DNA from: a virus | Taxonomy: Duplodnaviria > Caudoviricetes | Reading direction: 5' to 3' (one strand) | IMG/VR virus record: IMGVR_UViG_3300020049_008087 | Coordinates: 1 to 64,000 of that record | DNA length: 64,000 nt | In this document: positions 12,583-28,365 of the stretch, in pieces | How the letters are laid out: the number at the start of each line of letters is the position of its first letter | Numbering within the stretch: the first letter of the stretch is position 1 | Notes under the pieces: generated by a model | What the model was told of the DNA's origin: nothing | What the model saw: only the letters and a program-made list of their open reading frames with translations | Database searches by the model: none | Program-made: the position numbers and the translations under genes

Positions 12583-12788
12583 TCGCCCCCGTAGTATTCA
12601 ATCAATTTGGTCATATACTTTACTAATTTTTTATTCTTGCGCACATCTTCTTTGTGCAAGAATGCGCCATACACGCTACCCTCTAGATGATTTTCTAATT
12701 CTGTTAGCAGATAATTTCTTGCCTCAATCAGATTGGCTAGGGTAATAGCGTCTGCTACCTCATAGTGAATGCTCAGGTGATTGGGCAC
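12579..12788 (-). CDS. hypothetical protein
   Basis: GTG start overlapping the upstream stop. Confidence 0.5.
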   Translation of the reverse strand: MPNHLSIHYEVADAITLANLIEARNYLLTELENHLEGSVYGAFLHKEDVRKNKKLVKYMTKLIEYYGGE

Positions 12789-13012
12789 TATTCTACTCCA
12801 AAGTGTTTTTTTATTTTAAGAATGTGTGCATGTGCTGGTGCCTGTATTATAAATCCAGGAACATCGTACTGCATGCTATCAATCAATGTACAACATTCTG
12901 CAATAAGCAACTGGGTGAACTTTTTAAATTCTGGCATATCCCAGTGTCCAATGTCAAACATATCTGTTTCATAACCAGCCTCTACCGCCAACTGCCGAAT
13001 CCGTTCATTCAT
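12788..13012 (-). CDS. NERI/KFAELIV family mini-protein
   Basis: MNERIRQLA...KKFTQLLIAEC...HFGVE. Confidence 0.8.
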   Translation of the reverse strand: MNERIRQLAVEAGYETDMFDIGHWDMPEFKKFTQLLIAECCTLIDSMQYDVPGFIIQAPAHAHILKIKKHFGVE

Positions 13013-13014
13013 GT

Positions 13015-13239
13015 TTAGAACCTCACCACAGGTTTAGCGGGCACTGGCTCGCGCTCTGGTCCTTGTGGTACGCACATGAACTTACCAAAGATATGGTATT
13101 CATATCTGGATAGTATCATCCAGGAGTTTGCACACGCATCAGCACTGTCATAAGTGCCCAGATATCGCCAGCCACCGTGTTCAGTTTCAGTCACTGGCGA
13201 GATAGCCATGGTCCATAGTAGTAATATATGTGGTATCAT
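13015..13239 (-). CDS. small secreted protein
   Basis: hydrophobic N-terminus; YDSADAC...MCVP resembles 20498..20668. Confidence 0.5.
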   Translation of the reverse strand: MIPHILLLWTMAISPVTETEHGGWRYLGTYDSADACANSWMILSRYEYHIFGKFMCVPQGPEREPVPAKPVVRF

Positions 13240-13475
13240 TATGTCATTCCAAAATATTTTTTAACTGCATCGGCATGCTCGTGCCCATTCTTTGCCTTGG
13301 TATTCTTTCGCATTACAATGCAGGCCTCGTACAGTAGCAAATGAGCCAGTACCTCTGCATATAAAGTTACATCCTGGTAGATACCAAAAGGGCAATACAT
13401 CTTGCCATCTCTTGCCGGATACACCAGCTTGGATTGCTGTAGTAGTCGTTCTATGTTTTTATTAATGTCAGTCAT
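13239..13475 (-). CDS. divergent NERI-family-like protein
   Basis: IERLLQQS...LAHLLLYEAC...VKKYFG. Confidence 0.45.
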   Translation of the reverse strand: MTDINKNIERLLQQSKLVYPARDGKMYCPFGIYQDVTLYAEVLAHLLLYEACIVMRKNTKAKNGHEHADAVKKYFGMT

Positions 13476-13708
13476 GTGATTGGATCAGTGACGAAATCAT
13501 ATGTCTTTTCAAAGATTGCCTGGTCGCAGATATACAATTCAGCGTCTACTCCTCGCATTAGATAGTCGCCAGCTTTACCTTTCTTGTAATTGCCTTCCAG
13601 GGTATTGACTCTGAATTCTTCATGTATCTGTCTGGCCTGAACCACAATTGGACGCTTCATGCAAGCACTCATACCACCCACATCTTCATACGTGTCAAAT
13701 ATTTTCAT
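13472..13708 (-). CDS. PGDYG-like protein
   Basis: KRPIVVQA...TLEG...GDYLMRGV..ELY.C...IFEKTY. Confidence 0.6.
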   Translation of the reverse strand: MKIFDTYEDVGGMSACMKRPIVVQARQIHEEFRVNTLEGNYKKGKAGDYLMRGVDAELYICDQAIFEKTYDFVTDPIT

Positions 13709-13959
13709 TTCGCTTCCTTTAAATTAACGTCAGTGTATTCTAACACCGTTCTGCTCTGCACATCCCAAAACAGTTCAACTGCTTTTTTGGCATAGTCAGA
13801 ATCAATATATTGTCCAAGTACACCTTCCATATCAGTATATACTTTAGCACCCCATATGGTATTCTGTGTGCCAACTCTATAGACCACTCCAATGATTTTA
13901 CCGTCAACATCATCATAAAAAACAGATTGATAAAACTCTTTTTCTTGCCATCTTTTCAT
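13705..13959 (-). CDS. hypothetical protein
   Basis: GGTGAGGTG SD. Confidence 0.5.
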   Translation of the reverse strand: MKRWQEKEFYQSVFYDDVDGKIIGVVYRVGTQNTIWGAKVYTDMEGVLGQYIDSDYAKKAVELFWDVQSRTVLEYTDVNLKEAK

Positions 13960-13993
13960 TCGTCTATCACCTCACCAAAGTTTCGCTCATTCT

Positions 13994-14194
13994 TCAACTC
14001 CTATATACTTCAACAGTATTCAATATATTCTTGGCATAATTAATAGCAGTTTGTGAAGCAACATCATCTCGCATATATTGAGATACTTTATACGTTCTAT
14101 CAAATTTCCAAAACAGAAAGTTTTTGTAATACACATCATACTCTTCCATATGAGCATCATATATGACTTTGGTTTGCTTGAAAAGATGTTTCAT
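13994..14194 (-). CDS. hypothetical protein
   Basis: starts at a GVEE junction and ends within AGGAGTTGAAGAATG read in another frame. Confidence 0.55.
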   Translation of the reverse strand: MKHLFKQTKVIYDAHMEEYDVYYKNFLFWKFDRTYKVSQYMRDDVASQTAINYAKNILNTVEVYRS

Positions 14195-14457
14195 TCTTCA
14201 ACTCCGAAATGTTGTTTAATCATAGCACTTACACATTCTACGGCATTGTCCCATTCAGGATTATGTGTAACTCCGTCTTCCATTAAGTTGCCGCCACCGT
14301 ATTGGAACTCTATTTCCTTAATACATTCCTTAACAATCAACTGGGCGAACTTTTCTATATGTTTTTCTACTTCCAACTCGTGACCACGATAGTCAACTGG
14401 CATGTATGCTCCAAGCCCAGACCGATCATATAGAGCCAGTAAAAGTCGTTCGTTCAT
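14191..14457 (-). CDS. NERI/KFAELIV family mini-protein
   Basis: MNERL...EKFAQLIVKEC...HFGVEE. Confidence 0.85.
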   Translation of the reverse strand: MNERLLLALYDRSGLGAYMPVDYRGHELEVEKHIEKFAQLIVKECIKEIEFQYGGGNLMEDGVTHNPEWDNAVECVSAMIKQHFGVEE

Positions 14458-14669
14458 TCTTCAACTCCGAAATGTTCTTTAATCTCGTTAATAATATGAT
14501 TCACATCATTAGGTGGTGCCCAATCAAATGCCGCACGGTCTTGAGCAATGCTGATACATTCTTTCACAATCAACTCGGCAAACTTTTCACAGAAGTCAGC
14601 ATCAATGTGTTTATCTCCTGGAATAATTTTTCCAGCCTCTAGCATTAGTTCAGTAATTCGTTGGTTCAT
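14454..14669 (-). CDS. NERI/KFAELIV family mini-protein
   Basis: N-half shared with the gene starting at 23575. Confidence 0.85.
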   Translation of the reverse strand: MNQRITELMLEAGKIIPGDKHIDADFCEKFAELIVKECISIAQDRAAFDWAPPNDVNHIINEIKEHFGVEE

Positions 14670-14905
14670 TTTGTTTCTCCATTAGTTGGTGATTCTTCTA
14701 TTCCGAAATGTTTTTTAATATCACTTGCACAGTGTCTTGGCTCAGACGATGGCCACTTTTGTAAATCATCACATACACTGGCACATTCACGCACAATCAA
14801 CTCGGCGAACTTTTCTTTATCAAAGATCCAACCTTCGCCACTGTTTTCTGTTGGCTCAATGTAAGTAGTAGCCTGTTCAGCAAGTAGTTTAATTCGTTCG
14901 TTCAT
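14666..14905 (-). CDS. NERI/KFAELIV family mini-protein
   Basis: C-half shared with 22194..22436. Confidence 0.85.
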   Translation of the reverse strand: MNERIKLLAEQATTYIEPTENSGEGWIFDKEKFAELIVRECASVCDDLQKWPSSEPRHCASDIKKHFGIEESPTNGETK

Positions 14906-14906
14906 A

Positions 14907-15089
14907 TCAACTCCACTTCAATAAAAACCACATAGCGTCTTTGTCATTGCCAAAGAAATAATCAATTTTGGATTGATCGTAGGTATTATATCCATCACAA
15001 TGTAGGTCGTTAGTAATGTAACTTGGGCAATACTTTTTAGCCCACTCCAATGGAGTCCAAAGCGGATCGTAAGGTAAAGTAACGGTCAT
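14907..15089 (-). CDS. F-x-L-R-W family mini-protein
   Basis: close paralog of 47707..47889. Confidence 0.75.
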   Translation of the reverse strand: MTVTLPYDPLWTPLEWAKKYCPSYITNDLHCDGYNTYDQSKIDYFFGNDKDAMWFLLKWS

Positions 15090-15298
15090 GCCCACCTCAA
15101 CGCAAACATAGTAGCATCCCGACCTTGACGGAAATAATAGTCTGTTCCGTTATAGTGATAGACAGCATTCCACCGACTTTTAAAAGCCCCATAGTGTTCG
15201 CCAAGCCATGCTTCAATATCGTCAATCTTTTCGGGTGTTGGTCCTTCCACATTGACTGCTACCTTGTGTGGCCATAGTTCTTTCTTTAGAACTCTCAT
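15086..15298 (-). CDS. F-x-L-R-W family mini-protein
   Basis: YYFRQGRDATMFALRWA. Confidence 0.75.
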   Translation of the reverse strand: MRVLKKELWPHKVAVNVEGPTPEKIDDIEAWLGEHYGAFKSRWNAVYHYNGTDYYFRQGRDATMFALRWA

Positions 15299-15498
15299 GA
15301 ACCCCACCTCAACGCAAACCACGCAAAGTTTTCTCTCACTTGAAATATGTATCCGGTACCACCCGAACTTAACAAAAACGGATCACACCCATTCTTATAC
15401 ATCCAAGAACTGATTTCATGCCAGTCATCGGTCCGCCTACATTGATAAACAGGAAACTTATTCCAACCTGGATATGATGTTTTTTCTACCTTGTTCAT
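15295..15498 (-). CDS. F-x-L-R-W family mini-protein
   Basis: WFALRWGS. Confidence 0.7.
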   Translation of the reverse strand: MNKVEKTSYPGWNKFPVYQCRRTDDWHEISSWMYKNGCDPFLLSSGGTGYIFQVRENFAWFALRWGS

Positions 15499-15743
15499 GA
15501 ACTCCACCTCAACGCAAACCATGTTGCCAACTTGGGATCTTTCACTGTGATAGTGGGCACATATTTTGGTCCCAAATCACGAGGATCAAATGCTTCATGT
15601 GGTTTGGGATAAACACGCTCACGCCGGTAGAACCAAGCATAATCGTAGTTGTCAACAAGACCAGTCATATTACCCTTGCCCACATGCTTGTTTAACCATT
15701 CGGTACAACCTTCTGGTACACCTTGATGAAATTCTACTCTCAC
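15495..15743 (-). CDS. F-x-L-R-W family mini-protein
   Basis: KDPKLATWFALRWSS. Confidence 0.7.
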   Translation of the reverse strand: MRVEFHQGVPEGCTEWLNKHVGKGNMTGLVDNYDYAWFYRRERVYPKPHEAFDPRDLGPKYVPTITVKDPKLATWFALRWSS

Positions 15744-15901
15744 GGTCTATACTCCAGTTTAATACATTTCCAACCGTTGCGTTTTGCCCACCACATGTTG
15801 TAGATGGCTCGGATTACGCTAGGACCAGCGTAAATCTGTAGCCAATAGTAAGGCCCATCAACTGCGCTATCCCATACATTGACTTCATATCGCCATCCCA
15901 T
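15740..15901 (-). CDS. 53-aa hypothetical protein (not in ORF track)
   Basis: MGWRYEVNVW...LEYRP*; start and stop overlap both neighbours. Confidence 0.55.
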   Translation of the reverse strand: MGWRYEVNVWDSAVDGPYYWLQIYAGPSVIRAIYNMWWAKRNGWKCIKLEYRP

Positions 15902-16161
15902 TATTCAACTCCAAACTGTTGTCGAATCTGTCGTTCTACTTCATCAAATATAGCCAGTGCCAAATCTGGATCCATAGTTTTGTGCGAGTTCTTTTCACTA
16001 CACCAACCTCGGGCAATGGCACCAAGTAATTCTTCACGGTTGATACATTCCCTAACAATCAACTCGGCGAACTTTTCAACAAATGTGACCTGACTTGACC
16101 AAGAATCATCTTTGGTAGATTTTGCCGCTTTATTCCAAAGTTCTGCTATTCGTTCGTTCAT
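15901..16161 (-). CDS. NERI/KFAELIV family mini-protein
   Basis: MNERIAEL...EKFAELIVREC...QFGVE. Confidence 0.85.
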   Translation of the reverse strand: MNERIAELWNKAAKSTKDDSWSSQVTFVEKFAELIVRECINREELLGAIARGWCSEKNSHKTMDPDLALAIFDEVERQIRQQFGVE

Positions 16162-16373
16162 TCTTCAACTCCAAATTTATATGCCAATTCTTGAATTAAT
16201 CGTTCCTGTTTTTTGTCTGAGATATCGGATCTATAAATTGATAATATACATTCTTTCACAATCAACTCGGCGAATAATTCTAATGTTGCCTTCTGCACAG
16301 GACCTATATCGTGCCAATCTTTAAGGCGATCAAAAGCAGGTTGGTTTAATATTTCAGCAATTCGGTCGTTCAT
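16158..16373 (-). CDS. NERI/KFAELIV family mini-protein
   Basis: MNDRIAE...LFAELIVKEC...KFGVEE. Confidence 0.85.
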   Translation of the reverse strand: MNDRIAEILNQPAFDRLKDWHDIGPVQKATLELFAELIVKECILSIYRSDISDKKQERLIQELAYKFGVEE

Positions 16374-17198
16374 TTAAATCTCCACGTATACAAGTTCAAA
16401 ATTCTCTGCACGATCTTCATAGCCATCATAACCACGAGGGTTGCACACAATGCGACAACTGCCAATACAATAGTCAAATGGTTCATGGGTGTGGCCATGT
16501 GTCCACAGGCGAATCTGTCTACGATCCAAAATGAAATCGTCCATGTTGGTACTGTATGCACCATTCATGTGAAACTCCGTCTTGTACCTGGGATGAGTAC
16601 TGGCCTTGCTGGGAGCATGATGACCCACTACCACAACAGGCATCAGCTCATACTGCGCCAACACCTGATCCAGTCCCTGACGAAAAGCAAAATGATCTGC
16701 TACAGAATCTTGGGGCAGAAACTTGCCACCTGCAGTGGGTGCAGTGTTTTTGATCTGATAGTAATCATTCATTGTATTCTGCATCTGCATCATGGTAATG
16801 GGGTCCTGTGCGTTCATGTCAGTCCATAGTGTGCCACCAAAGAACAACACACCGTTAATGATACGCCATTCTTTATCCAAGAAATGCACATTGTGCAAGT
16901 CGCCAAAGGTGCCACGAATGATTTTAGCAGTACCAGCATAGTCGCCGTGATAGTGTTCGTGATTGCCCATGATCAAGATCACCTGCGGGAATCGTTCACT
17001 GCAACGAGTCACAAAGTTGTTGTAGCGTTCGGCGCGGGCCTGTACAGTCTCGGTGACTGGCAGCACTGTACCACTGGCGGTTAAGTCGCCGGCTACAAAG
17101 ATGTCCCCACCAAGTATTAACACATCGGCGTTCTCACTGTTGACCAAATCTAAATCACCAAACTCTAGGTGCAGATCACTGCACACTGCGATTTTCAT
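16374..17198 (-). CDS. calcineurin-like metallophosphoesterase
   Basis: SDLHLE, GGDI, MGNHEHY, GHH, HGHTH motifs. Confidence 0.85.
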   Translation of the reverse strand: MKIAVCSDLHLEFGDLDLVNSENADVLILGGDIFVAGDLTASGTVLPVTETVQARAERYNNFVTRCSERFPQVILIMGNHEHYHGDYAGTAKIIRGTFGDLHNVHFLDKEWRIINGVLFFGGTLWTDMNAQDPITMMQMQNTMNDYYQIKNTAPTAGGKFLPQDSVADHFAFRQGLDQVLAQYELMPVVVVGHHAPSKASTHPRYKTEFHMNGAYSTNMDDFILDRRQIRLWTHGHTHEPFDYCIGSCRIVCNPRGYDGYEDRAENFELVYVEI

Positions 17199-17449
17199 TT
17201 TTTACTTTCAACGCAATAGCCGCCCTTGAACACATACACATCTGAATTGAAATCTATCTGTTTGTAAATTTCACCGTTAACGCATTTATATGGATCTCTG
17301 TACATGGTTGACATGTAATAATATATACTATAGCCAATACCACCAAGCACACTAACTACCAATACCAATATGACCAGTGACTTGAGGTTACCCATGATAC
17401 TGGGAATGATTGCCAGTATCTGTGGTAAGAATTTCAATAAATCTTTCAC
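17195..17449 (-). CDS. small membrane protein
   Basis: TM helix and two Cys. Confidence 0.5.
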   Translation of the reverse strand: MKDLLKFLPQILAIIPSIMGNLKSLVILVLVVSVLGGIGYSIYYYMSTMYRDPYKCVNGEIYKQIDFNSDVYVFKGGYCVESKK

Positions 17450-17588
17450 TATACGATTCCTATCTTTATATGATTATAACACCAAATAAGAGTATCCACA
17501 AGTTTGCATATGCCCAAAGGCACAAAGATCATGAGCAACACAGCCATGCTGGCAATCATGCTGCCGATATTTTTACCAACGTCATGCA

Positions 17589-17987
17589 TCATTTGCTATC
17601 TCCAATAGCACTCAGTTCACTCACGTGCTTGCACGATCTACGAAAGGTGAAGCCTGGGCAATTGCAATCCCAACCGCCACTGTCTTTGGTCACCACATAC
17701 TTTTTACCCTTGCTACCGGTAACTTCAAATGTTTGCATGCCAGTGTCAACTGTTTTAAAATCACCGCTCAACAATTCAATGTCACGCACCAAGTTCATGT
17801 CAATAACACGCACTCGCATGGTTTCATCACCGGTCATGCAAAACTGTCGGTCATTCAACCATTTGTGTGATGGAACAACCATGCCCTCAAACACATAGTG
17901 GTCAGGCTGCGGTGGGAACATACGAGGTCCCTGTGCATAACGTATGCTAACGCGAACCTTACTGTCTTTTGTGGGCACTTGCATCAT
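17589..17987 (-). CDS. SWIM zinc-finger protein
   Basis: YVV...WDCNCPGFTFRRSCKHV. Confidence 0.7.
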   Translation of the reverse strand: MMQVPTKDSKVRVSIRYAQGPRMFPPQPDHYVFEGMVVPSHKWLNDRQFCMTGDETMRVRVIDMNLVRDIELLSGDFKTVDTGMQTFEVTGSKGKKYVVTKDSGGWDCNCPGFTFRRSCKHVSELSAIGDSK

Positions 17988-18550
17988 TACTTTCCTTCAC
18001 GTTGATCTTGCATTACCCAACCCTCACCACAGTCAGGGCAGCGATATTGACCATTCAGTTCAACCAGATCCTGTACTATGAGTACAGAACCACAGTTAAC
18101 GCATTCCTCTGATTCCTCACTGATCAGCCGGTCAAATTCTTGCTTTAGTGCTGCCAATCTGACAGCATCAGGCCTGGTATCATACTCTGCCTCTTGACCC
18201 AATTGTACCCTAAGACCATTTACCTCATCACGCAATTCACGAATTATATCTCGGTCTGTTTTGGGTGGTGCGTAATCTGCATCCACCTCATATGTAACTT
18301 CATAGCTGCCTTTACGGTCAGTCCACCAGTCATCTTCGTCAAGCCAGTCCCAATCAATGCTGTACATATTTTGGCTGTGTGCATTTTCAATCAATTCAGT
18401 TACTTCATACTCAGCATCCAACAACTGCTGCCAAATTGCGTCTTGTTCTTCGCTGTCTAAATCTGGGAAAATCTCATCAAGTTGTTCACGCTCAATGTCC
18501 AGTGCATAGCGTCTTTCCACTTGGTGCCATTCACTTTTGATTATTCTCAT
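17987..18550 (-). CDS. acidic protein with C-terminal zinc ribbon
   Basis: CVNCG...YRCPDCG. Confidence 0.55.
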   Translation of the reverse strand: MRIIKSEWHQVERRYALDIEREQLDEIFPDLDSEEQDAIWQQLLDAEYEVTELIENAHSQNMYSIDWDWLDEDDWWTDRKGSYEVTYEVDADYAPPKTDRDIIRELRDEVNGLRVQLGQEAEYDTRPDAVRLAALKQEFDRLISEESEECVNCGSVLIVQDLVELNGQYRCPDCGEGWVMQDQREGK

Positions 18551-18726
18551 TTGTATTCCTTTGTGTCAAAAATAATGGTGGCTCCGATTGTCAACCACAA
18601 GGCGAACAATCCATACTCGTTGTTGTATAAATGGTTCAATGATACCAATATATTTAGGACACCAATAGTATATCCAATGGGCTTGCGTTTACTATTAAAC
18701 CATTCTGAAAATTTCTGCATTGTCAT
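18547..18726 (-). CDS. small membrane protein
   Basis: AAGGAG SD, two hydrophobic segments. Confidence 0.5.
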   Translation of the reverse strand: MTMQKFSEWFNSKRKPIGYTIGVLNILVSLNHLYNNEYGLFALWLTIGATIIFDTKEYK

Positions 18727-18730
18727 CTCC

Positions 18731-19000
18731 TTAAGGGGTGTCACGATTGGATAAGTCAGCACCATTCTTAAACGCTCGGTGTATATCATCACTGAATTCC
18801 TGCATCGCGGTTGTATCAAATGTGTGCATCACTGCATTGCGTACAGCATCAGAATCTTTGCCCCAAAATGCTGCACCTGCGGCCACTCGGGCACACTCAG
18901 CCACAATCAACTGGGCGAACTTTTCAACATCAAAATCTTCCCTAAATTCATCGTCCCAATCAGCCTGATGGGCAAGTTGTTTAATTCGTTGGTTCATCAC
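18731..19000 (-). CDS. NERI/KFAELIV family mini-protein (variant C-terminus)
   Basis: MNQRIKQLA...EKFAQLIVAEC. Confidence 0.8.
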   Translation of the reverse strand: MMNQRIKQLAHQADWDDEFREDFDVEKFAQLIVAECARVAAGAAFWGKDSDAVRNAVMHTFDTTAMQEFSDDIHRAFKNGADLSNRDTP

Positions 19001-19332
19001 ATGTTCCTTATCTTTTGTACTTCAAATCCAAATTCGGTTGTATCTAATTTCCCATCAATCAAACTAATAATTAATGATGAATATTTCTCAACCCATTCAC
19101 TAATCATTCGCAGTTCTTTACCGGACAAACTGCTATTGACATTTTTGACCAATTTTGATGTAGACCCAACTGAAAAGATTGCCGCCCAATCATTATCTTT
19201 TGTTACTTTAATTCTATACTTGTCGTGACCATGCTCTAACGGATCTGTTCTACACCAAATAACAATGTTGGAAGGTAATCCCGTTGTCCTGCTTGAAAAG
19301 TTGGACATTTCATAGAGATCACCTGCCTTCAT
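18997..19332 (-). CDS. 111-aa protein, tandem duplicate copy A
   Basis: near-identical to 19562..19897 (EMSNFSSRTTGLPSNIVIWCRT). Confidence 0.75.
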   Translation of the reverse strand: MKAGDLYEMSNFSSRTTGLPSNIVIWCRTDPLEHGHDKYRIKVTKDNDWAAIFSVGSTSKLVKNVNSSLSGKELRMISEWVEKYSSLIISLIDGKLDTTEFGFEVQKIRNM

Positions 19333-19562
19333 TATTCAACTCCGAACGATTCATGTATGTCTGCTATAATAGCGGTCAGCATAGCATTGTATGCTAAATC
19401 GTATTGAACAGTATTTTCTGTACCCTTGCGTATCTTAGCAACACATTCCCTGACAATCAATTCGGCGAACTTTTTACACTCGGGCATATCCCAATGTCCT
19501 ATACCAAACATATCAGGCAAGTATCCAGCCTGTTCAGCAAGTTCTCGAATTCGGTCGTTCAT
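19332..19562 (-). CDS. NERI/KFAELIV family mini-protein
   Basis: N-half shared with 12788..13012. Confidence 0.85.
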   Translation of the reverse strand: MNDRIRELAEQAGYLPDMFGIGHWDMPECKKFAELIVRECVAKIRKGTENTVQYDLAYNAMLTAIIADIHESFGVE

Positions 19563-19897
19563 TACATATTCCTTATCTTTTGTACTTCAAATCCAAATTC
19601 AGTTGTATCTAATTTTCCATCAATCAAACTAATAATCAATGATGAATATTGCTCGACCCATTCACTGATCATTCGCATTTCTTTGCCGGATAAACTACTG
19701 TTGATATTTTTGACCAAGTCTGAGGTAGACCCAACTGAAAAAATAGCCGCCCATTCATTATCTTTTGTTACTTTAATTCTATATTTGTCGTGACCGTGAT
19801 CTAATGGGTAGGTTCTACACCAAATTACAATATTAGAAGGTAATCCTGTAGTCCTGCTTGAAAAGTTAGACATTTCATAGAGATCATCTGCCTTCAT
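19562..19897 (-). CDS. 111-aa protein, tandem duplicate copy B
   Basis: near-identical to 18997..19332. Confidence 0.75.
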   Translation of the reverse strand: MKADDLYEMSNFSSRTTGLPSNIVIWCRTYPLDHGHDKYRIKVTKDNEWAAIFSVGSTSDLVKNINSSLSGKEMRMISEWVEQYSSLIISLIDGKLDTTEFGFEVQKIRNM

Positions 19898-20124
19898 TAT
19901 TCAACTTCAAAATGTTCAGCAATAAACTGCTTCACAGTAATTGCACCTGATGCCTCAACATCACAATCATGAGTCACAAAACTCATCTCTGCAACTTCAC
20001 ACATACGCATACATTCCCGCACAATCAACTCGGCGAACTTTTCAGCGTGATCAACACCCATCCATTTACCACTACAATCAGTACCAGCTTGTTTCATTAA
20101 TTCTTTAATTCTTTCAGCCATCAT
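19897..20124 (-). CDS. NERI/KFAELIV family mini-protein
   Basis: C-half shared with 21582..21809. Confidence 0.85.
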   Translation of the reverse strand: MMAERIKELMKQAGTDCSGKWMGVDHAEKFAELIVRECMRMCEVAEMSFVTHDCDVEASGAITVKQFIAEHFEVE

Positions 20125-20321
20125 TCAACTCCGAATTTTCTTTTGATCGCCATTGCTAAAATCATTGCAGTTTGACTAGTACCGTCAGGCATACCATATG
20201 CATCACAAATATCAATACATTCCTGCACAATCAACTCAGCAAAATCTTTGCATAGGTCTTCTCGTTCAGTTGCAAACCATAAGCCAGATTGCTTGGCAAG
20301 TTCTATAATTCGTTCGTTCAT
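20121..20321 (-). CDS. NERI/KFAELIV family mini-protein
   Basis: MNERIIELA...DFAELIVQEC...KFGVE. Confidence 0.85.
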   Translation of the reverse strand: MNERIIELAKQSGLWFATEREDLCKDFAELIVQECIDICDAYGMPDGTSQTAMILAMAIKRKFGVE

Positions 20322-20491
20322 TATAAACTCACTCCGCTGATTACTTCATCATCAAGGATTAGTTGAATACTGTGACAGTCGGTGTACATGTGACCGTCAC
20401 TGCCACCATTGTATATGGAATCTGTCCTAACCTCAAGCCGTAAATTGTCTTTGATGTATTGTCTAATCAACTCACTCATTTCTTCACTCAT
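20321..20491 (-). CDS. 56-aa hypothetical protein (not in ORF track)
   Basis: MSEEMSELIRQYIK...GVSL*; TAATG coupling. Confidence 0.5.
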   Translation of the reverse strand: MSEEMSELIRQYIKDNLRLEVRTDSIYNGGSDGHMYTDCHSIQLILDDEVISGVSL

Positions 20492-20497
20492 TTTAAA

Positions 20498-20668
20498 TTA
20501 ACCCTTCTCAATACAAGTGATCCGAAGAATATTACCAGGATGCGGCTTATTCAGCAGCACCCAATTCTGAGCATTTTCACACGCTGATTTGGTACCGAAT
20601 TCTTGCATTGTAAAACCAAAAGGATGTGATCCTGCGGATTGGAATGCTATGATAAGAATCCATTTCAT
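20498..20668 (-). CDS. 56-aa secreted mini-protein (not in ORF track)
   Basis: MKWILIIAF...EFGTKSACENA...ITCIEKG*; starts at a GVEK junction. Confidence 0.55.
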   Translation of the reverse strand: MKWILIIAFQSAGSHPFGFTMQEFGTKSACENAQNWVLLNKPHPGNILRITCIEKG

Positions 20669-20883
20669 TTTTCTACTCCATATTCGGTATAAAGGTTACG
20701 CAAATCTGCTCGGACTCGTTCTGCCATAGGTCTATACTTTTCAGGCAGAATTGGGTAGTATGTCCATTCCATGCCACCCCAAACTTTATTACTACCAAGC
20801 ATTCTATCAAGATCGGCTAATAGTTGGAATCGTGGATCAGCCCACAATGCCTCTAAATTTTCATCACGAGTTATTTCATTCAT
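20665..20883 (-). CDS. hypothetical protein with NERI-type ends but no core
   Basis: MNEI...YGVEK. Confidence 0.6.
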   Translation of the reverse strand: MNEITRDENLEALWADPRFQLLADLDRMLGSNKVWGGMEWTYYPILPEKYRPMAERVRADLRNLYTEYGVEK

Positions 20884-21116
20884 TCTTCAATCCCAAAATG
20901 TTGTAATAGACCGTTAGCACAATCACCGACAGCATCATTATAAGTCAGTTCATTTGTATCAGCAACCTCTTTGTCGAGTACTTGTCCTTTGCAATGTTCA
21001 TAACATTCCAGCACAATCAATGAGGCGAACTTTTCTAAGTGCTCTGCATTATGGAGCACACTATTACCCATCTTATTAGCATACTTCATTGCTAGTTCTT
21101 TAGTCTGTTCGTTCAT
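20880..21116 (-). CDS. NERI/KFAELIV family mini-protein
   Basis: EKFASLIVLEC...HFGIEE. Confidence 0.8.
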   Translation of the reverse strand: MNEQTKELAMKYANKMGNSVLHNAEHLEKFASLIVLECYEHCKGQVLDKEVADTNELTYNDAVGDCANGLLQHFGIEE

Positions 21117-21277
21117 AAATGTCTCCCAAAAAAATCATATACCGCAAACCATTTCCAAGTTTCTGGATGTTCAGCACGCCATGCTATGTGTGCAGGATTC
21201 TGATTCCAACTCATACCATCAGGACCCCATTGCCAGTGATATGTGCCAAATCTAATGTTAAACCAAAGATTGCTCAT
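21113..21277 (-). CDS. 54-aa Trp-rich protein (not in ORF track)
   Basis: MSNLWFNIRF...FFGRHL*; ATGA overlaps at both ends. Confidence 0.55.
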   Translation of the reverse strand: MSNLWFNIRFGTYHWQWGPDGMSWNQNPAHIAWRAEHPETWKWFAVYDFFGRHL

Positions 21278-21585
21278 ACATTCCCCAATCCAATGCGACT
21301 GTAGCCCAACCGGCTCTTGATATCTTTACGGTCTTTATTCTTTTCTGGTTTCCAGGCTCTGGGATCAACAGTTTCTCCAGTGAGTTCATAACGAAAGTCT
21401 GGATCGTATACCATATAGCCTAGTTTGTTCCATTTGATTACACCATCATCAAAGAGAAAGATACATCCACGACACATACAGAAACTGGCACCAGTATCTG
21501 TCATTACATTGCCGTTGACTGTGCCCACATACTTGACCACACGACCATTGTGCATTTCTTGTAAGGCTTGGTAGTAGTCAATCAC
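21274..21585 (-). CDS. hypothetical protein
   Basis: GTG start at a GVES junction. Confidence 0.55.
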   Translation of the reverse strand: MIDYYQALQEMHNGRVVKYVGTVNGNVMTDTGASFCMCRGCIFLFDDGVIKWNKLGYMVYDPDFRYELTGETVDPRAWKPEKNKDRKDIKSRLGYSRIGLGNV

Positions 21586-21809
21586 GATTCAACTCCAAAA
21601 TGTTCAGCAATAAATTGTTTAACAGTAATTGCACCCGATGCCTCAACATCACAATCATGAGTCACAAAACTCATCTCCGTAACCTCGCACATACGCATAC
21701 ACTCCCGTACAATCAACTCAGCAAACTTTTCTAATTTGGTCGGGATACCGTCTGGGTTGTATGTAAGCAATCCAGACTCATGGGCAAGTTCTCTAATTCG
21801 TTCATTCAT
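21582..21809 (-). CDS. NERI/KFAELIV family mini-protein
   Basis: C-half shared with 19897..20124. Confidence 0.85.
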   Translation of the reverse strand: MNERIRELAHESGLLTYNPDGIPTKLEKFAELIVRECMRMCEVTEMSFVTHDCDVEASGAITVKQFIAEHFGVES

Positions 21810-21985
21810 TCTCTATCCCTCCACATCTCTATCGCTTCTTTCAACTGAGCCATCTGATCCAGTCGAATATCGTCCATGATACCCATACCCATAAACTCTG
21901 AATTCATATTGCGTTCAGTCATCTTCCAGAGTATATCATATTGCTTCTGGAGAGTATCAATCACCACATCATAATCTTCTGTCAT
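21806..21985 (-). CDS. 59-aa hypothetical protein (not in ORF track)
   Basis: MTEDYDVV...MWRDRE*; ATGA overlaps. Confidence 0.55.
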   Translation of the reverse strand: MTEDYDVVIDTLQKQYDILWKMTERNMNSEFMGMGIMDDIRLDQMAQLKEAIEMWRDRE

Positions 21986-22197
21986 AATTTGAATGCTTTC
22001 TGGTATAGTTGCAACTCTTTACTTGGTACCCATTCTTCCATGTCCGAATTAGCAGTTGTAGAAAGGCGCAGAAACGAATAGTCTGTAAAATTAAACTTAC
22101 CATTGTTTCTTACTACACGAACGAAAATATCACACGGGTTACCATCCTCATCTGTGCGTGGTCCTCTGACCAAAACGAATTCTGTGTTAGGTGTCAT
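21982..22197 (-). CDS. hypothetical protein
   Basis: starts at a GVEE junction. Confidence 0.55.
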   Translation of the reverse strand: MTPNTEFVLVRGPRTDEDGNPCDIFVRVVRNNGKFNFTDYSFLRLSTTANSDMEEWVPSKELQLYQKAFKL

Positions 22198-22436
22198 TCT
22201 TCAACTCCAAAATGTATCCTTATATCGTTTGCACAATGCCGTGGTTCTGTCGATGGCCACTTTTGTAAATTCTCACAAACATCAGCACATTCAGCCACAA
22301 TCAACTCGGCGAACTTTTGTTCAAACATTTCATTATAATACTTTGTAGACCATTCAGTAGGGTCTTGACTGTTTTCTACTTCCCCGAAAGCATACTGTCT
22401 AGCCTCAACGGCAAGTTTTTCAATTCGTTCGTTCAT
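22194..22436 (-). CDS. NERI/KFAELIV family mini-protein
   Basis: C-half shared with 14666..14905. Confidence 0.85.
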   Translation of the reverse strand: MNERIEKLAVEARQYAFGEVENSQDPTEWSTKYYNEMFEQKFAELIVAECADVCENLQKWPSTEPRHCANDIRIHFGVEE

Positions 22437-22623
22437 CTGGATCTTTCTCATAACAAGTTAAACATACAGCATCATAGCGTGGTCCCATATTAGGACTGAT
22501 AGCACCACTACAATATTTACAAAGAATAAATGCGTGTGTGACTATATAACCTTTTCCCGGAGCATACAAAGGATAGAATCCTTCTTCACGCTCAGTATAG
22601 CCGATTAGTTCTTGTTCGTTCAT
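22420..22623 (-). CDS. small zinc-finger-like protein
   Basis: CKYC...CLTC. Confidence 0.5.
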   Translation of the reverse strand: MNEQELIGYTEREEGFYPLYAPGKGYIVTHAFILCKYCSGAISPNMGPRYDAVCLTCYEKDPDERTN

Positions 22624-22714
22624 AGTCCAAGTCTTCCTAATATATTGCCCAACCACATCATTCCAACTCCAAGCATAATGGTGCCAACGATTAGTATTTT
22701 GATTTCAGTTCTAT

Positions 22715-22927
22715 TCATTCTTCAACTCCGAAATGTTTCAACAAAAATTCTAAATCAGGATGACCTTTATGAAAGGCAGTATCAATACATTCCCGCACAA
22801 TCAACTCGGCGAACTTTTGTTTATCGAAATACTCAGTCGTTTTCCAACGTGTATCCCTACCGTCATAGATTATGTCATCGTAAACCGAAGTGCATTCTTC
22901 GATCAATTGGTTGATTCTGTTACTCAT
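22715..22927 (-). CDS. NERI/KFAELIV family mini-protein
   Basis: QKFAELIVREC...HFGVEE. Confidence 0.85.
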   Translation of the reverse strand: MSNRINQLIEECTSVYDDIIYDGRDTRWKTTEYFDKQKFAELIVRECIDTAFHKGHPDLEFLLKHFGVEE

Positions 22928-23154
22928 TCTTTGACTCCAAAATGTTGTTTTAACTGTGCCATCATATTATGATAACACAAATCTCGAGTAATGGTCCATT
23001 GATCATCGTTTTCACCATTGGATCTCTGGGACTCAATTTCATTTAGACATTCCCGAACAATCAACTCGGCAAACTTTTCTATAATATCTTCAAAATCATC
23101 GCCATACTTATAAAACCCTGCTTGTTTAGCAAGTAGTTTAATTCGTTCGTTCAT
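22924..23154 (-). CDS. NERI/KFAELIV family mini-protein
   Basis: MNERIKLLA...EKFAELIVREC...HFGVKE. Confidence 0.85.
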   Translation of the reverse strand: MNERIKLLAKQAGFYKYGDDFEDIIEKFAELIVRECLNEIESQRSNGENDDQWTITRDLCYHNMMAQLKQHFGVKE

Positions 23155-23360
23155 CGCCATTCTCCTGATCTACGGATTTCTTCGTCAGTAAACTGTCCGC
23201 CCATACGGTCTGGATTCTCAATCCATTCACGGGTAGATTTAGTTTGGTCAATAACCATTTTAAGTTGCTGGATTTCTTTGTCTTTCATTTCCAACAATAC
23301 CTTGGCCATCTCTAATCGTTCTTCAACGGGAAATGCCTCATTGTCTAAAATCTTGTTCAT
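23151..23360 (-). CDS. hypothetical protein
   Basis: starts at a GVEE junction; ends NPDRMGGQFT. Confidence 0.55.
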   Translation of the reverse strand: MNKILDNEAFPVEERLEMAKVLLEMKDKEIQQLKMVIDQTKSTREWIENPDRMGGQFTDEEIRRSGEWR

Positions 23361-23659
23361 TCTTCAACTCCAAAATGTTCTGCGATACGGTTGACTGCTA
23401 AATCAACATAATAAACACAATCCTCTGGTGTACTTGTATAACTGGCGCCCGCAACTTCCATACATTCTTTCACAATCAGCTCGGCGAACTTTTTACAAAA
23501 GTCAGTATCAATATGTTTGTCCCCTGGAATAGTTTTTCCAGCCTCTAGCATTAGTTCAATAATTCGTTCGTTCATTCTTTGTCCTTTATGGATAACAGTA
23601 GCAGAATCGTGAATAGCATCAACTAGCATTCCGTGTTCATCTGGTGTAAGTTCGTTCAT
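23357..23659 (-). CDS. NERI/KFAELIV family protein with in-frame N-terminal extension (family start at 23575)
   Basis: MNELTPDE...KGQR-MNERIIELMLEAG...HFGVEE. Confidence 0.8.
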   Translation of the reverse strand: MNELTPDEHGMLVDAIHDSATVIHKGQRMNERIIELMLEAGKTIPGDKHIDTDFCKKFAELIVKECMEVAGASYTSTPEDCVYYVDLAVNRIAEHFGVEE

Positions 23660-23835
23660 ACTCTCCATCCTGACGGATATTTTTTAAATGGGGCATTATG
23701 TTCTCGCACCCAATCATTGTAGTCATTTACTTGTTTGCCCTGCATTTCTACAATCTTGCATCTAGATGTTGTGCCATAATGAACAACAATTGGATACCAT
23801 AGATGTTCTTCATATCTAGGAACTACTTTGAACAT
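23656..23835 (-). CDS. 59-aa hypothetical protein (not in ORF track)
   Basis: MFKVVPRYEE...GWRV*; preceded by intergenic AGGAGTTGAATAATG. Confidence 0.55.
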   Translation of the reverse strand: MFKVVPRYEEHLWYPIVVHYGTTSRCKIVEMQGKQVNDYNDWVREHNAPFKKYPSGWRV

Positions 23836-23845
23836 TATTCAACTC

Positions 23846-24031
23846 CTAACCAAACCAAACCAATACATCTGCTCGACCGGTAAATACCATCCAAGCGGCA
23901 GTTATTCTTTTTCGTAGATTTATTCCTGGCCATGACATAGGTCTTGCCTGAGTCCATAATCCATTTTTTCCAGCGGATTGAAGTGACCAACATTTAATTT
24001 GGTCCGCAGAATATACCATAGGTGTTCTCAT
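23846..24031 (-). CDS. hypothetical protein
   Basis: starts at a GVEE junction. Confidence 0.55.
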   Translation of the reverse strand: MRTPMVYSADQIKCWSLQSAGKNGLWTQARPMSWPGINLRKRITAAWMVFTGRADVLVWFG

Positions 24032-24282
24032 TCTTCAACTCCAAAATGTTTTCCTATCCGCTTAGAACAATCATCTGCCCAAGCACTATATAATCCATCG
24101 TGCATCTTTCCTCTATCAGCGCAAACTTCGGCACATTCTCGCACAATCAACTCGGCGAACTCTCCCATTACAATGCTGTTGAAAATAGCATCAAGGTCAC
24201 CTACCTTGTGTCCTGTTCTTGCACATTCTTCAAAGCCTTTGGTATAACTCGCTTCAAGTAGTTTTTTGAATTCTTTGTTCAT
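24028..24282 (-). CDS. NERI/KFAELIV family mini-protein
   Basis: EFAELIVREC...HFGVEE. Confidence 0.8.
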   Translation of the reverse strand: MNKEFKKLLEASYTKGFEECARTGHKVGDLDAIFNSIVMGEFAELIVRECAEVCADRGKMHDGLYSAWADDCSKRIGKHFGVEE

Positions 24283-24527
24283 TCTTCAACTCCGAAATGT
24301 AATATACCACCTTGTCCATTATCAAAGTGCTCCTCAATTTTCTGGGCATAATGGTCACCTTCTTTGGTACCATCCATTACAGCCTTAACACATTCAAACA
24401 CAATCAACTCGGCGAACTTTTCCAAAACAGTAGAGTCCAGAGTATCTTTTGGATCGTACATATACACAGCATCCCCCCACACGGCAATACCAGCCTGTTC
24501 AGCAAGTTCTTTAATTCGCTCGTTCAT
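24279..24527 (-). CDS. NERI/KFAELIV family mini-protein
   Basis: MNERIKELAEQAG...EKFAELIVFEC...HFGVEE. Confidence 0.85.
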   Translation of the reverse strand: MNERIKELAEQAGIAVWGDAVYMYDPKDTLDSTVLEKFAELIVFECVKAVMDGTKEGDHYAQKIEEHFDNGQGGILHFGVEE

Positions 24528-25278: not shown

Positions 25279-25875
25279 TCAAGTGGTTCGTTTTGTTACA
25301 ATTCTGTCAACAAGACCATACTCCAATGCTGTTTGTGCGCTCATGAAATTGTCACGCTCCATGTCTGCTGCCAGTTGCTCAAATGTTTTGCCTGCACTGT
25401 TATGATCAACGTAGATTTGGGTCAGATTCTTTTTCATTTCAAGAATTTCGTTCACTTGAATCAGCATGTCAGTGGCTTGACCACGAGCACCACCGCTTGG
25501 CTGATGTATCATATGACGAGCATTGGGTAACATGAGTCGTTTGCCTTTTGAGCCAGCTTGCGCTAACAGTGAACCCATACTACAGGCTTGACCCATTACA
25601 ATAGTGCTTACATCTGGTGCCACAAACTGTAGTGCATCATAGATTGCCATACCTGCGGTAACCGAACCGCCGGGGCTGTTGATGTACAGATTGATATCTT
25701 TGTTGGTGTCTTCGCTTTCCAGGAAGAGCAGTTGAGCTACGATGAGATTTGCCATTTGGTCACTCACTTCACCTTCAAGTAAGATAACTCGGTCACGCAG
25801 CAGGCGACTGTAGATATCAAATACTCTTTCTCCGCGACTTGAATTTTCTAAAACCATTGGAACTAATGAGGACAT
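25279..25875 (-). CDS. clpP: ATP-dependent Clp protease proteolytic subunit
   Basis: [26 protein letters not shown] (catalytic Ser), MIHQP (His). Confidence 0.95.
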
Positions 25876-25955
25876 AAACTATTAACCTTTCTTGTGATAA
25901 ATTTTAATGTACATGCTGATTATACACTAAATCGCAATAGGTTTCAAGTGAATTG

Positions 25956-26037
25956 GTATAAATACTTGTAGTTCGCGGGATTGGCGTCCCCAACTACTCT
26001 AATGCTTTGAAGGAGCAATCAGCATGTCTATTTATAC
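25956..26037 (+). promoter_or_regulatory. late promoter + two-hairpin endonuclease leader (copy 1 of 3)
   Basis: GTATAAATA...GTAGTT-CGC-GGGA-loop-TCCC-C-AACTAC...TGCT-TTGAAGG-AGCA...ATG...TATTTATAC. Confidence 0.8.
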
Positions 26038-26842
26038 AACAAATAATCACATTCCTTATACTTATCTTATAGGATGGACTAAATTGAACATTTGGTATTA
26101 CGGTAGGCGCACCAAAAAAGGGTGCCACCCTTCTGAATTTTGGATAACGTATTTTACTTCTTCTAATAAAGTCCATAATTTTAAGAAGGAACATGGCGAG
26201 CCAAATGTTGTTAAAATCAGGAAAACGTTTACTGGTACAGATAAAATTCATGATTGTGTGAACCATGAAGTTACCGTGCTAAGAAGAATTGATGCGGTGA
26301 AAAAAGACATGTGGTTAAATAAAGGAAATGCTGGCTCCCAATTTGATACGTCGGGTAAAGTAATCGCAAAAGAAATAGAAAGCGGAAAAATAGTAGTAAT
26401 TAATCAGAATGATTTTGCACCTGGCTCCAGTCTTGTTGGTATTAACTCAGGAATTAAATTTAGAAAATGTAAGTGCCAATGGTGTGAAAAAGAGATTGCA
26501 ATTAATAATATTTCAACTCACGAATTAAGCTGCGCATGTAACCCCGCAGGAGTTATGCATCAACGAACTGGAATTCCACTACCGGAATCAATTAAAGAAA
26601 ACATGAGACTCAACCATGCAGATGTGTCAGGTGCCTGTAATCCAAAAGCAAAACTATGGATATTAACATCACCTAGTGGTGATAAAACATATATCAATGG
26701 TACGCTAAATCAAACGTTACGAGAGAAACAGTTAAGCAGAAATCATCTTATTGCCAACTTAGGACAAATTGTACAGTCTAATTGTTCTATTAGATCAGAG
26801 TTGACCCGAAACACGTTAGGTTGGAAATTAGAATCACCGTAA
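26024..26842 (+). mobile_element. Seg-like GIY-YIG homing endonuclease
   Basis: YTYLIGW...WYYGRR...YFTSS; antisense to flanks. Confidence 0.75.
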
Positions 26843-26868
26843 TTCAGTTAAAATACAAAGGATTATGG

Positions 26869-28365
26869 TTACCGTTTTTTTCTTCCCACACCCACTGCAG
26901 CGGATTTTTCTAGGCGTTTGGGTTCTACTATGTCTGCTGCCGCGGCAGCAACAGCAGGTCCAACATCAACTGTATCCACTTCAGTTTCACCCGGTTCACT
27001 GCTAACACTGTCATCAGTCTTACCCAACTTGAAACTGAACCCGCCGCTGGTTGGATCACTTGCACTGGATTTGTTTTCTATTGATATCTCACCATCCAGT
27101 TTTGCTGGCCATTGAGTGCTAAAGGTCAGTTCGCCTGCTTTGTAGTCAGTGTACTGTTGGATAAAGTTCATTTCCAGTATCTGTAAAACTGTGGCACCGA
27201 ACTCGGGTATAGCATCGTTATTGTTTATTGCATCAGCTACTGTTTTCTTGATAGCATAAATCAATTTACCACCATCAGTAGCAGTGCTCTTGGCTTTTAT
27301 GTCAGCATACAATGGTTGAAATTGTTTCGGTAACGGCAACTGTTCTTTTAAACTCCTGATGCTCATCTGAACAATGTTGGGGAATTTGGAACTAAACGGT
27401 AGGAACTTTTGCCATACTTTGGGTAATGAGTTTGGATTAATCTGGTAAATAAAATCAATGGCCTTGAATGCTGATGTAATCGTAGTTGGACCAGACTTGT
27501 CAATTTCTTGACATAATTCAATGAACCTTACTGAGTCTTTAAATGCAGGGTTACGTTTCAGGTCGTTGGAAATCTTCAATCCTGACAGTGCAGGAGCAGC
27601 ACCTCCTCCGGTTCCCTTACTGCTAATGTTGATAGTATGGTTAGTACCTGGATTGGTAATTACTGCAAAGCTGTCAGCCAAATTGTTATTTGCTTTGCTG
27701 GGGAAGTTTAACATTAGATCATCTATGCTACCACCCAACCACTGTTCAAATTGTGCTCGCTTTGGAAATCGTGTTCTGTGGTACAGTAAGGCCAACACAC
27801 CCAAATACTCTCCGGCGTAGTCAACCACTGCTGCACGAATCTTGTCATTACTCTGTAATTCTTCAGGCAAAAATACTTGCTCTCCTGAAACAATATACTC
27901 GGCCAACTGAATGATTCCTTTACCGTACTCAGTGCCGGCTAATGTGGGGTTGTTGGCAATGGATGCATAGAAGTCACTGGCAGGAATATTTTTGTCTACT
28001 ATGCCTATTTGGCTGGGTTTGACTACCAATGTTTCTTTACCAGCAGTGGATCCTTCTTCGCCAGCTGCCACCTGCTGTCCACCAAACTCTTGTGTTTTTC
28101 TTAGGGTGCTCAGTGCAACTTCCTGGCCGTCTGTGGTTCTGGCCTTTAGTCCACCTTTAAACTCACCAGCATTGCGTAACTCAACAAAACGTTTGGCCTC
28201 TCTGGGATCAATTATAACTTCCTGTCCCTGAGCATCAGTAAACGGGCTTCTGCTTTGTATTTTTTTAATGAAGGTAGTAAAGCGTTCTTCGTATTTGGTA
28301 ATCTCGCCGGCGCTGAGTCCAGTAGCTTCGTTTATTGTATTGAGTAGGTCTAAAATATCGCGCAT
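26869..28365 (-). CDS. large late protein, possibly virion-internal with a PD-(D/E)xK-like fold
   Basis: MRDILDLL...NE N-terminus, ATAAATA at 28372-28378, E...LADS...ISSK motif. Confidence 0.5.
   Translation of the reverse strand: MRDILDLLNTINEATGLSAGEITKYEERFTTFIKKIQSRSPFTDAQGQEVIIDPREAKRFVELRNAGEFKGGLKARTTDGQEVALSTLRKTQEFGGQQVAAGEEGSTAGKETLVVKPSQIGIVDKNIPASDFYASIANNPTLAGTEYGKGIIQLAEYIVSGEQVFLPEELQSNDKIRAAVVDYAGEYLGVLALLYHRTRFPKRAQFEQWLGGSIDDLMLNFPSKANNNLADSFAVITNPGTNHTINISSKGTGGGAAPALSGLKISNDLKRNPAFKDSVRFIELCQEIDKSGPTTITSAFKAIDFIYQINPNSLPKVWQKFLPFSSKFPNIVQMSIRSLKEQLPLPKQFQPLYADIKAKSTATDGGKLIYAIKKTVADAINNNDAIPEFGATVLQILEMNFIQQYTDYKAGELTFSTQWPAKLDGEISIENKSSASDPTSGGFSFKLGKTDDSVSSEPGETEVDTVDVGPAVAAAAADIVEPKRLEKSAAVGVGRKKR

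Follow-up and report, generated by a model that had tools for sequence, protein, structure and literature searches.

Why a tandem array of small paralogous phage genes should end, gene after gene, in the same stretch of DNA that is at once a protein tail and a ribosome-binding site is the question raised by positions 12788-24527 (minus strand) of the sequence analysed here. The window is the first 64 kb of a linear IMG/VR virus record (IMGVR_UViG_3300020049_008087; 85,182 bp, GC content 41.6%), and the array within it consists of approximately 20 paralogs interleaved with unrelated small cargo genes (open reading frame (ORF) list and alignment A1). In an initial annotation the junction between these genes was proposed to be a DNA module that allows cargo to be inserted or deleted by short-homology recombination, in the manner of an integrase-free gene-cassette array. 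We consider, at odds of roughly two in three, that the paralogs carry three frozen blocks serving as crossover points and that the 3' block is dual-coding, specifying both the protein tail and a portable translation start.

The paralogs are 66-103 amino acids long and share the pattern MNERI..LA.QAG...EKFAELIVxEC...I..HFGVEE (alignment A1). Nineteen family matches in the array were identified by a hidden Markov model (HMM) scan and 18 in 12 kb by profile A3, which also identified 3-17 family copies per complete relative, and more than 7,740 metagenomic proteins matched the family profile. Three conserved blocks and a three-helix fold are present in the family (alignments A1 and A3 and an AlphaFold (AF2) model). 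The model is a three-helix bundle with a predicted local distance difference test score (pLDDT) of 84.7, in which helix 3 extends to F67 and is followed by a tail, G68-E71, that is not helical. As DNA the blocks read ATG AAC GAA CGA ATT (5' block), AAG TTC GCC GAG TTG ATT GT (core) and CAT TTY GGA GTT GAA GAA TGA (3' block), and a repeat finder recovered three direct-repeat families that were these same three blocks. No match to the family was found in Pfam or PHROG, a Foldseek search against the PDB returned nothing at E <= 0.001, and the structures recovered from BFVD and the ESM Atlas were all of uncharacterised viral proteins.

The annotated arrangement of a conserved end F-G-V-E-E-stop holding GGAG, 7 nt and an overlapping ATG was read directly at the family gene ends, as TTY GGA GTT GAA GAA TGA with the ATG overlapping the stop. 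When up to two mismatches were allowed, the junction string GGAGTTGAAGAATG had 18 matches in the window compared to 0.71 expected, a count reached in 0 of 100 shuffles. All 18 were on the minus strand at 13988-24293, and the whole 85-kb record contained one extra match (two mismatches) at 80897. Sorted by reading frame, as the initial annotation had suggested, fourteen copies formed the end of family genes, as G-V-E(-E)-stop or a close variant of it, and one ended the coreless gene 20665-20883 (GVEK-stop), while single copies were located in another frame (13988-14001, tat AGG AGT TGA aga ATG), after a stop codon (23833-23846, ggt TAG GAGTTGAATAATG) and at 24224 as a chance internal match. Both places where the string was said to occur without encoding GVEE (13988-14001 and 23833-23848) were as described. 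At the first of these, cargo gene 13994-14194 does end Y-R-S-stop inside the string ahead of a seven-codon mini-ORF (13990-13967, ATG AGC GAA ACT TTG GTG AGG TGA). The mini-ORF is probably a relic of the 5' end of a deleted family gene, because its counterpart in L002, a relative with an approximately 98% identical backbone, starts ATGAACGAA, which is the family 5' block. The description of gene 20665-20883 as having family-like ends without the core was also correct, its ends being MNE and YGVEK and its hhalign probability against the family profile 0.5%; relatives of this gene end EYGVEE.

Codon usage at the junction was compared across 160 viral-contig loci, which were found by a search with six close paralogs and contained 321 non-redundant family genes, 251 of them ending FG[VI]x(x)-stop. 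The junction Gly codon was GGA in 238 of the 251 (95%) compared to 30% of the Gly codons elsewhere in these genes, the Val codon was GTT in 92% (38% elsewhere), the Glu codon was GAA in 199 of 202 (75% elsewhere) and the stop was TGA in 88%. The complete arrangement of GGAG, 7 nt and ATG was present in 197 of the 251 genes (78%). The Phe codon just upstream was free (TTC 157, TTT 94; elsewhere TTC 39%, TTT 61%). The GGA bias was kept after reduction to 179 clusters of members whose neighbouring 60 nt were less than 60% identical (166/179, p = 3e-70). Synonymous variants that destroy GGAG, which would have counted against the initial proposal had they been common, were rare (13 of 251 genes). 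The junction string is conserved as DNA past the needs of the peptide.

These figures bear on the explanation that the protein itself needs HFGVEE, with the Shine-Dalgarno sequence and ATGA overlap incidental and the frozen codons due to recent common descent. HFGVEE is the C-terminal end in 83 of the 120 best metagenomic homologs, and in the AF2 model H and F are placed in a confidently modelled helix with G right after its last residue. The synonymous freezing, however, persisted where the adjacent sequence was unrelated, while the Phe codon varied. A coupled downstream start was absent in just five of the 251 members, and in four of these five the tail had decayed. In addition, the same DNA was kept when read KRTFRS-stop or xRS-stop and behind stop codons, and the tail was found on unrelated proteins, so that a requirement of the protein alone appears improbable.

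The core and N-terminal blocks were as frozen at synonymous sites as the 3' block. Observed and background codon frequencies in the core were 91% and 36% for AAG, 82% and 28% for GCC, 90% and 21% for GAG and 91% and 33% for TTG, and in the 5' block 91% and 48% for AAC, 93% and 34% for CGA and 77% and 21% for CTT. The core block and the junction string have the 7-mer GAGTTGA in common (GCC GAG TTG ATT in the former, G GAG TTG AAG in the latter), for example at 14323-14355 and 14455-14468, which may be a coincidence. The freezing of the core has to be accommodated by the explanation that the string is a ribosome-binding site only, that is, a near-optimal initiation region for packed genes without a recombination role, where breakpoints reflect illegitimate recombination plus selection. 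Such an explanation accounts for the conserved positions, which are those of an extended Shine-Dalgarno sequence, spacer and ATGA with the third base of the Phe codon lying outside and free; ATGA overlaps are common across the record (46 of approximately 158 adjacent gene pairs), and the C-terminus of a second family described below encodes a different Shine-Dalgarno sequence. The core block, in contrast, plays no part in initiation but is frozen to the same degree and carries crossovers that make in-frame chimeras.

The string was also used in other frames and behind other genes. In 1.88 Mb of related loci, 261 copies (at most one mismatch) were located on the coding strand and 0 on the opposite strand, and the exact 15-nt string was reused across at least 120 viral-contig stretches. 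Among the non-redundant copies, 163 form the in-frame end of family genes, 33 close genes with no family-HMM match (e.g. ...EYGVEE, RATVGVEE and DKLLGVEE), 19 lie behind stop codons or short ORFs and 13 are read one base over as xRS-stop or xWS-stop, five of these thirteen being family genes in which identical DNA is read KRTFRS-stop instead of KEHFGVEE-stop. An L105 homolog of cargo gene 23846-24031 (97% identical) has the in-frame end WFGVEE-stop. The end of the window gene, which matches phrog_21988, carries a TGGTT run (23846-23870) and has five extra bases relative to L105; owing to the resulting frameshift the protein is terminated by a TAG immediately ahead of the junction string. The motif was present at 79% of junctions between two family genes and 66% of those from a family gene to another gene, but at 11% of those from another gene to a family gene and 2% between other genes; the string is mainly part of the family gene on the upstream side. 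The motif was also considered as the 5' leader of the family gene itself, which was rejected as the main reading on the basis of the 11% ahead of family genes versus 66-79% behind them. The proposed DNA module was borne out in its conservation as DNA and its occurrence in other frames and between genes, but rather than being free-standing it forms the 3' part of a paralog gene with three blocks.

The features of the array to which the rearrangements below refer were as follows.

24279-24527 (-): family gene ending HFGVEE-stop, overlapping the following family gene by ATGA; the core forms one arm of a 4.9-kb crossover
24028-24282 (-): family gene ending HFGVEE-stop, the stop overlapping the ATG of cargo gene 23846-24031
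23846-24031 (-): non-family cargo gene, phrog_21988, ending WFG-TAG
23833-23848 (-): non-coding copy of the junction string, tAGGAGTTGAATAATG, overlapping the TAG stop and supplying the ATG of gene 23656-23835
23357-23668 (-): family gene with an N-terminal extension, a mosaic at the core (N-half approximately 89% identical to 14454-14669, C-half different)
22924-23160 (-): family gene ending HFGVKE-stop
22715-22927 (-): family gene ending HFGVEE-stop, followed by membrane mini-gene MNRTEIK
22194-22451 (-): family gene ending HFGVEE-stop, followed by cargo gene MTPNTEF (21982-22197)
21582-21809 (-): family gene ending HFGVES-stop, read GGAGTTGAATCGTGA, with the next gene starting GTG; left edge of a 2,590-nt block absent from metagenome variants
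20880-21116 (-): family gene ending HFGIEE-stop, a GGG ATT variant
20665-20883 (-): coreless gene with ends MNE... and ...YGVEK-stop and no detectable homology to the family
19897-20321 (-): two family genes ending FGVE-stop and FEVE-stop
19332-19562 (-): family gene ending FGVE-stop; the core forms the second arm of the 4.9-kb crossover
18731-18997 (-): family gene without a GVEE end; right edge of the 2,590-nt block
15901-16373 (-): two family genes; the core of 16158-16373 is the crossover point with a 21582-type C-half in L002
14191-14905 (-): three tandem family genes, within which identity with L002 restarts
13994-14194 (-): non-family cargo gene with its Y-R-S-stop inside the junction string in another frame
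13967-14001 (-): junction string and seven-codon mini-ORF
13239-13475 (-): divergent outlying family gene ending FGMT-stop
13015-13239 (-): non-family gene between the two outlying family genes
12788-13012 (-): outlying family gene ending FGVE-stop

The clearest rearrangement events were core-to-core crossovers that yielded chimeric genes. L002 lacks window positions 19475-24386, a 4.9-kb presence/absence difference with the join inside the core, and carries a chimeric gene in which the N-half of 24279-24527 is fused to the C-half of 19332-19562. Another L002 chimera combines the N-half of 16158-16373 with a C-half of the 21582 type, and identity between L002 and the window restarts at 14484, 30 nt ahead of the stop of family gene 14454-14669. 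Within the window, the C-halves of 19897-20124 and 21582-21809 are 90% identical. In L001, a 111-kb relative, the cargo genes MNKILD, MNRTEIK and MTPNTEF are placed behind different paralogs, MNRTEIK being located behind different ones in L001, L013 and L023, and identity with L001 leaps from about 30% to 95-100% inside (A)ACATTTYGGAGTTGAAGAATGA. The similarity change occurred inside the 22-25-nt block in every case inspected. The expectation that boundaries of cargo gain and loss in relatives would fall at the motif was upheld in that similarity switched inside the string, but the best-documented L002 events were core-to-core.

Among informative pairs, abrupt switches were found at the motif in 83 of 93 (0.89) and at the core in 95 of 99, compared to 0.43 at tight junctions without the motif and 0.00 mid-gene. 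Similarity tracts ended at the feature in 0.77 of junctions from a family gene to another gene, 0.63 of cores, 0.33 of ordinary boundaries and 0.01 of mid-gene positions; both sets of figures involve pseudo-replication, with controls that represent upper bounds. A peptide-anchored neighbour-discordance test was not used due to its noisy baseline (0.60 at ordinary junctions). The frequent breaks at boundaries without the motif fit a string that acts in initiation only; set against this are the approximately two-fold higher frequency of switches at the motif than at other tight junctions and the confinement of the similarity change to the 22-25-nt block in all inspected cases. Together with the frozen core mentioned above, we consider a ribosome-binding site without any part in recombination unlikely.

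Variants of the array were also present in freshwater metagenome contigs (Logan). The core-to-core joint of 19461 to 24409 was found in two runs with 13 ambiguous bases, and a joint of 21588 to 18997 was found in three runs as GGAGTTGAA-GA-ATGAACCAA, a canonical junction from which 2,590 nt (11 genes) are absent. These joints are relevant to the possibility that the chimeric genes and joints are assembler misjoins at short repeats, since all of the comparison sequences are metagenome contigs, and contig ends and assembly-graph branches do pile up at block edges. However, the k-mers used by these assemblers exceed the length of the blocks (15-35 nt), one and the same core-to-core joint was shared by L002, an IMG/VR contig, and Logan contigs from two different runs, and the 21588 to 18997 joint recurred in its three runs; an assembly artefact is very improbable. 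Many short joints seen at high depth in run X11 (with sides of 22-36 nt) represent other metagenome family members rather than variants of this phage and were disregarded. A separate variant, present in all four metagenome runs, swaps 510 nt at 21310-21819, including family gene 21582-21809, for 169 other bases, and one of its edges is away from any family block.

A RecA/UvsX-type recombinase gene was present in all four complete relatives. A tyrosine integrase (PF00589) was absent from the record (24% complete) and from the four complete relatives, and searches of the record itself for RecA, RecT and integrase were negative, which is uninformative for a record that is just 24% complete. A search for boundary inverted repeats or attC-like sites with the repeat finder gave only four distant, chance-like inverted pairs. 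The idea of an integrase-free cassette array working by short-homology recombination stands as far as the missing tyrosine integrase and the RecA/UvsX genes of the complete relatives are concerned, but it is weakened by breaks at tight junctions without the motif (0.33-0.43), which mean that the motif is not required for mosaicism.

Based on these observations, the 3' block, which encodes the helix end and the tail H-F-G-V-E-E, would at the same time be a complete initiation region consisting of GGAGTTGA, an A-rich spacer and the ATG overlapping TGA. As judged from the established 16S sequence, GGAGTTGA would match the ideal anti-Shine-Dalgarno complement GGAGGTGA at seven of eight positions. 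Ribosomes may reinitiate or load at the block, in which case each downstream gene could be expressed without signals of its own. Identical blocks of 20-45 nt are encountered every few hundred bases, both in the array and in co-infecting relatives, and homologous recombination, probably by a phage RecA/UvsX-type enzyme, would cross over inside them. Crossovers in the core would reassort gene halves and delete or insert kilobases, whereas those in the 3' block, alone or together with the adjoining 5' block, would exchange, delete or insert whole cargo genes, leaving frame and translation signals intact. Repeated exchange is expected to homogenise the blocks, and selection on the ribosome-binding site would further fix the 3' block.

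ATGA overlaps were present at 90% of junctions between family genes and 66% of those from a family gene to another gene, and the most frequent Shine-Dalgarno class of the record was GGAG with a spacing of 6-7 nt. Directly upstream of the array, at 25282-25254 and 25011-24983 (minus strand), are two sigma-70 promoters that match the consensus perfectly (12/12, 17-nt spacers). No promoter was identified between cassettes, where promoter-like and terminator-like sites were not above shuffled expectation, and strong promoters were found only at the array head. Because promoters head the array with none between the cassettes, it looks like a long early operon.

Several points weigh against crossover blocks with a dual-coding 3' end. 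Eight folded junctions were no more structured than shuffled sequences (z of -0.09 to +1.33) and no stable hairpin over the Shine-Dalgarno sequence was found among them, so nothing enforces strict coupling, and plain de novo initiation explains the ribosome-binding site equally well. For the freezing of the core the sole explanation offered is a presumed homogenisation, and a structural function of H, F and G is plausible, given that in the model F ends helix 3 and G is next. Boundaries without the motif often break as well, at the rates given above, and the two-fold enrichment is approximate because the controls use ungapped anchoring and the pairs are pseudo-replicated. The 21588 to 18997 variant is no simple product of two window sequences, since the flanks differ (TCGTGA and CATGTG), and the frame-shifted family members could in part be indel errors of metagenome assemblies.

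Modular shuffling of this kind has been described in the hyperplastic regions of T4-type phages, where modules are shuffled by PeSL cassettes (Arbiol et al. 2010, PMC2839356; Comeau et al. 2014, PMC4122927). The array resembles the PeSL system in having brief conserved signals for expression that recur among small, non-essential early genes, in indels and replacements whose ends lie in the repeats when close relatives are compared (here L002, L001 and the metagenome joints), in moved genes that keep working expression signals and in the lack of a site-specific recombinase. Unlike PeSL, which is an intergenic sigma-70 promoter plus stem-loop terminator of approximately 100 bp, the array has neither element between its overlapping genes; its repeat is 15-45 nt long, translational (Shine-Dalgarno sequence plus ATGA), situated inside coding sequence and part of a paralogous protein family with two further recombining blocks. 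Coupling through an ATGA overlap with the Shine-Dalgarno sequence inside the upstream gene is known as termination-reinitiation (Huber et al. 2019, PMC6728339; review PMC12548453), and the junctions share with it the 4-nt stop/start overlap and a Shine-Dalgarno sequence at functional spacing in the last codons of the upstream gene. Those cases are specific to gene pairs, whereas the string here is reused, fixes four C-terminal residues family-wide and survives frame changes. RNA structure acting against independent initiation has been proposed for Escherichia coli pairs (PMC6728339), in contrast to the eight junctions folded here.

Like integron arrays, the locus consists of promoterless, small, unrelated genes in one orientation behind a common promoter, with gain and loss at a repeated boundary. 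It differs from integrons in having no IntI/tyrosine integrase or attC-like inverted repeats, in a boundary that is a translated direct repeat and in exchange that also takes place inside genes. Multigene families such as Neisseria pilE/pilS and Borrelia vls are diversified by segmental gene conversion at conserved blocks. These share with the array identical conserved blocks that flank hypervariable segments, and reassortment of the segments. All copies in the array, however, look expressed in tandem rather than from a single expression site with silent donors, the setting is a phage and not a bacterial surface antigen, and the blocks also carry the translation signals of neighbouring genes. 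The array would combine intragenic Shine-Dalgarno coupling with PeSL-like modular shuffling, and it lacks the defining features of PeSL and of an integron.

This would make it a translational, coding-sequence counterpart to the promoter/terminator cassettes of T4-type phages, and what the adjacent gene requires, and not what the protein requires, may determine the last residues across the family, a fixed protein end that annotators and family curators would otherwise misread as a functional motif. A general question raised is whether the hyperplastic regions of large phages are built on short portable expression signals that double as recombination sites. The family, which is unnamed and has thousands of members, is a candidate for early host-takeover or counter-defence roles. 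More tentatively, it could be a self-shuffling gene library of giant phages, kept because it sped up the diversification of early host-takeover or anti-defence proteins. The three frozen joints would then resemble built-in cloning overlaps for the homologous recombination of the phage itself, protein halves and whole neighbour genes would be exchanged across a shared environmental gene pool, and the 3' joint would guarantee translation of whatever stands behind it.

The source is a giant freshwater phage known here as a fragment. The completeness of the record by CheckV is 24%, which implies a genome of roughly 350 kb, and the genomes of four complete relatives are 214-374 kb. Metagenome runs containing the sequence were mostly freshwater. 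The minus strand carries nearly all genes of the record, and genes nearby include those for ClpP, ClpX, ClpS, HSP20, DNA ligase and a metallophosphoesterase. A megablast search with the array and a tblastn search with one family member gave no match among 50,697 GenBank phages, and the phosphoesterase was the sole gene with (distant) matches among GenBank phages. In the scans of family and cargo genes, matches to Pfam or PHROG were to phrog_21988, DUF4160 (19562-19897; weak and below cut-off), SWIM (weak) and the phosphoesterase, and these scans gave no match for the remaining family and cargo genes of the array.

Other rearrangements and repeated genes were located in and around the array. 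The region 25820-28348 is replaced in L002 and the 498-amino-acid gene 26869-28365 has a divergent middle. Within the replaced stretch is a plus-strand gene (26024-26842) that is homing-endonuclease-like without a Pfam match and may be absent from L002. Two copies of a 111-amino-acid gene (18961-19260 and 19526-19825), 88% identical over 300 nt and with a weak, below-cut-off match to DUF4160, alternate with family genes, which suggests that a unit of two genes was recently duplicated.

A second tandem paralog family is located at 14907-15743 and 45809-48371 and ends ...F-A-L-R-W(x)-stop. Its last codons, TTG AGG TGG nnn TGA, provide a GAGGTGG Shine-Dalgarno sequence and an ATGA overlap for the next gene, which is the same principle as in the GVEE family with a different Shine-Dalgarno string. 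Past the window end (G000, 67072-73676), seven consecutive genes of 145-629 amino acids all start M-R-A-x-E-F-(V/I)-x-E, a family that also has a fixed terminus, in this case the N-terminus.

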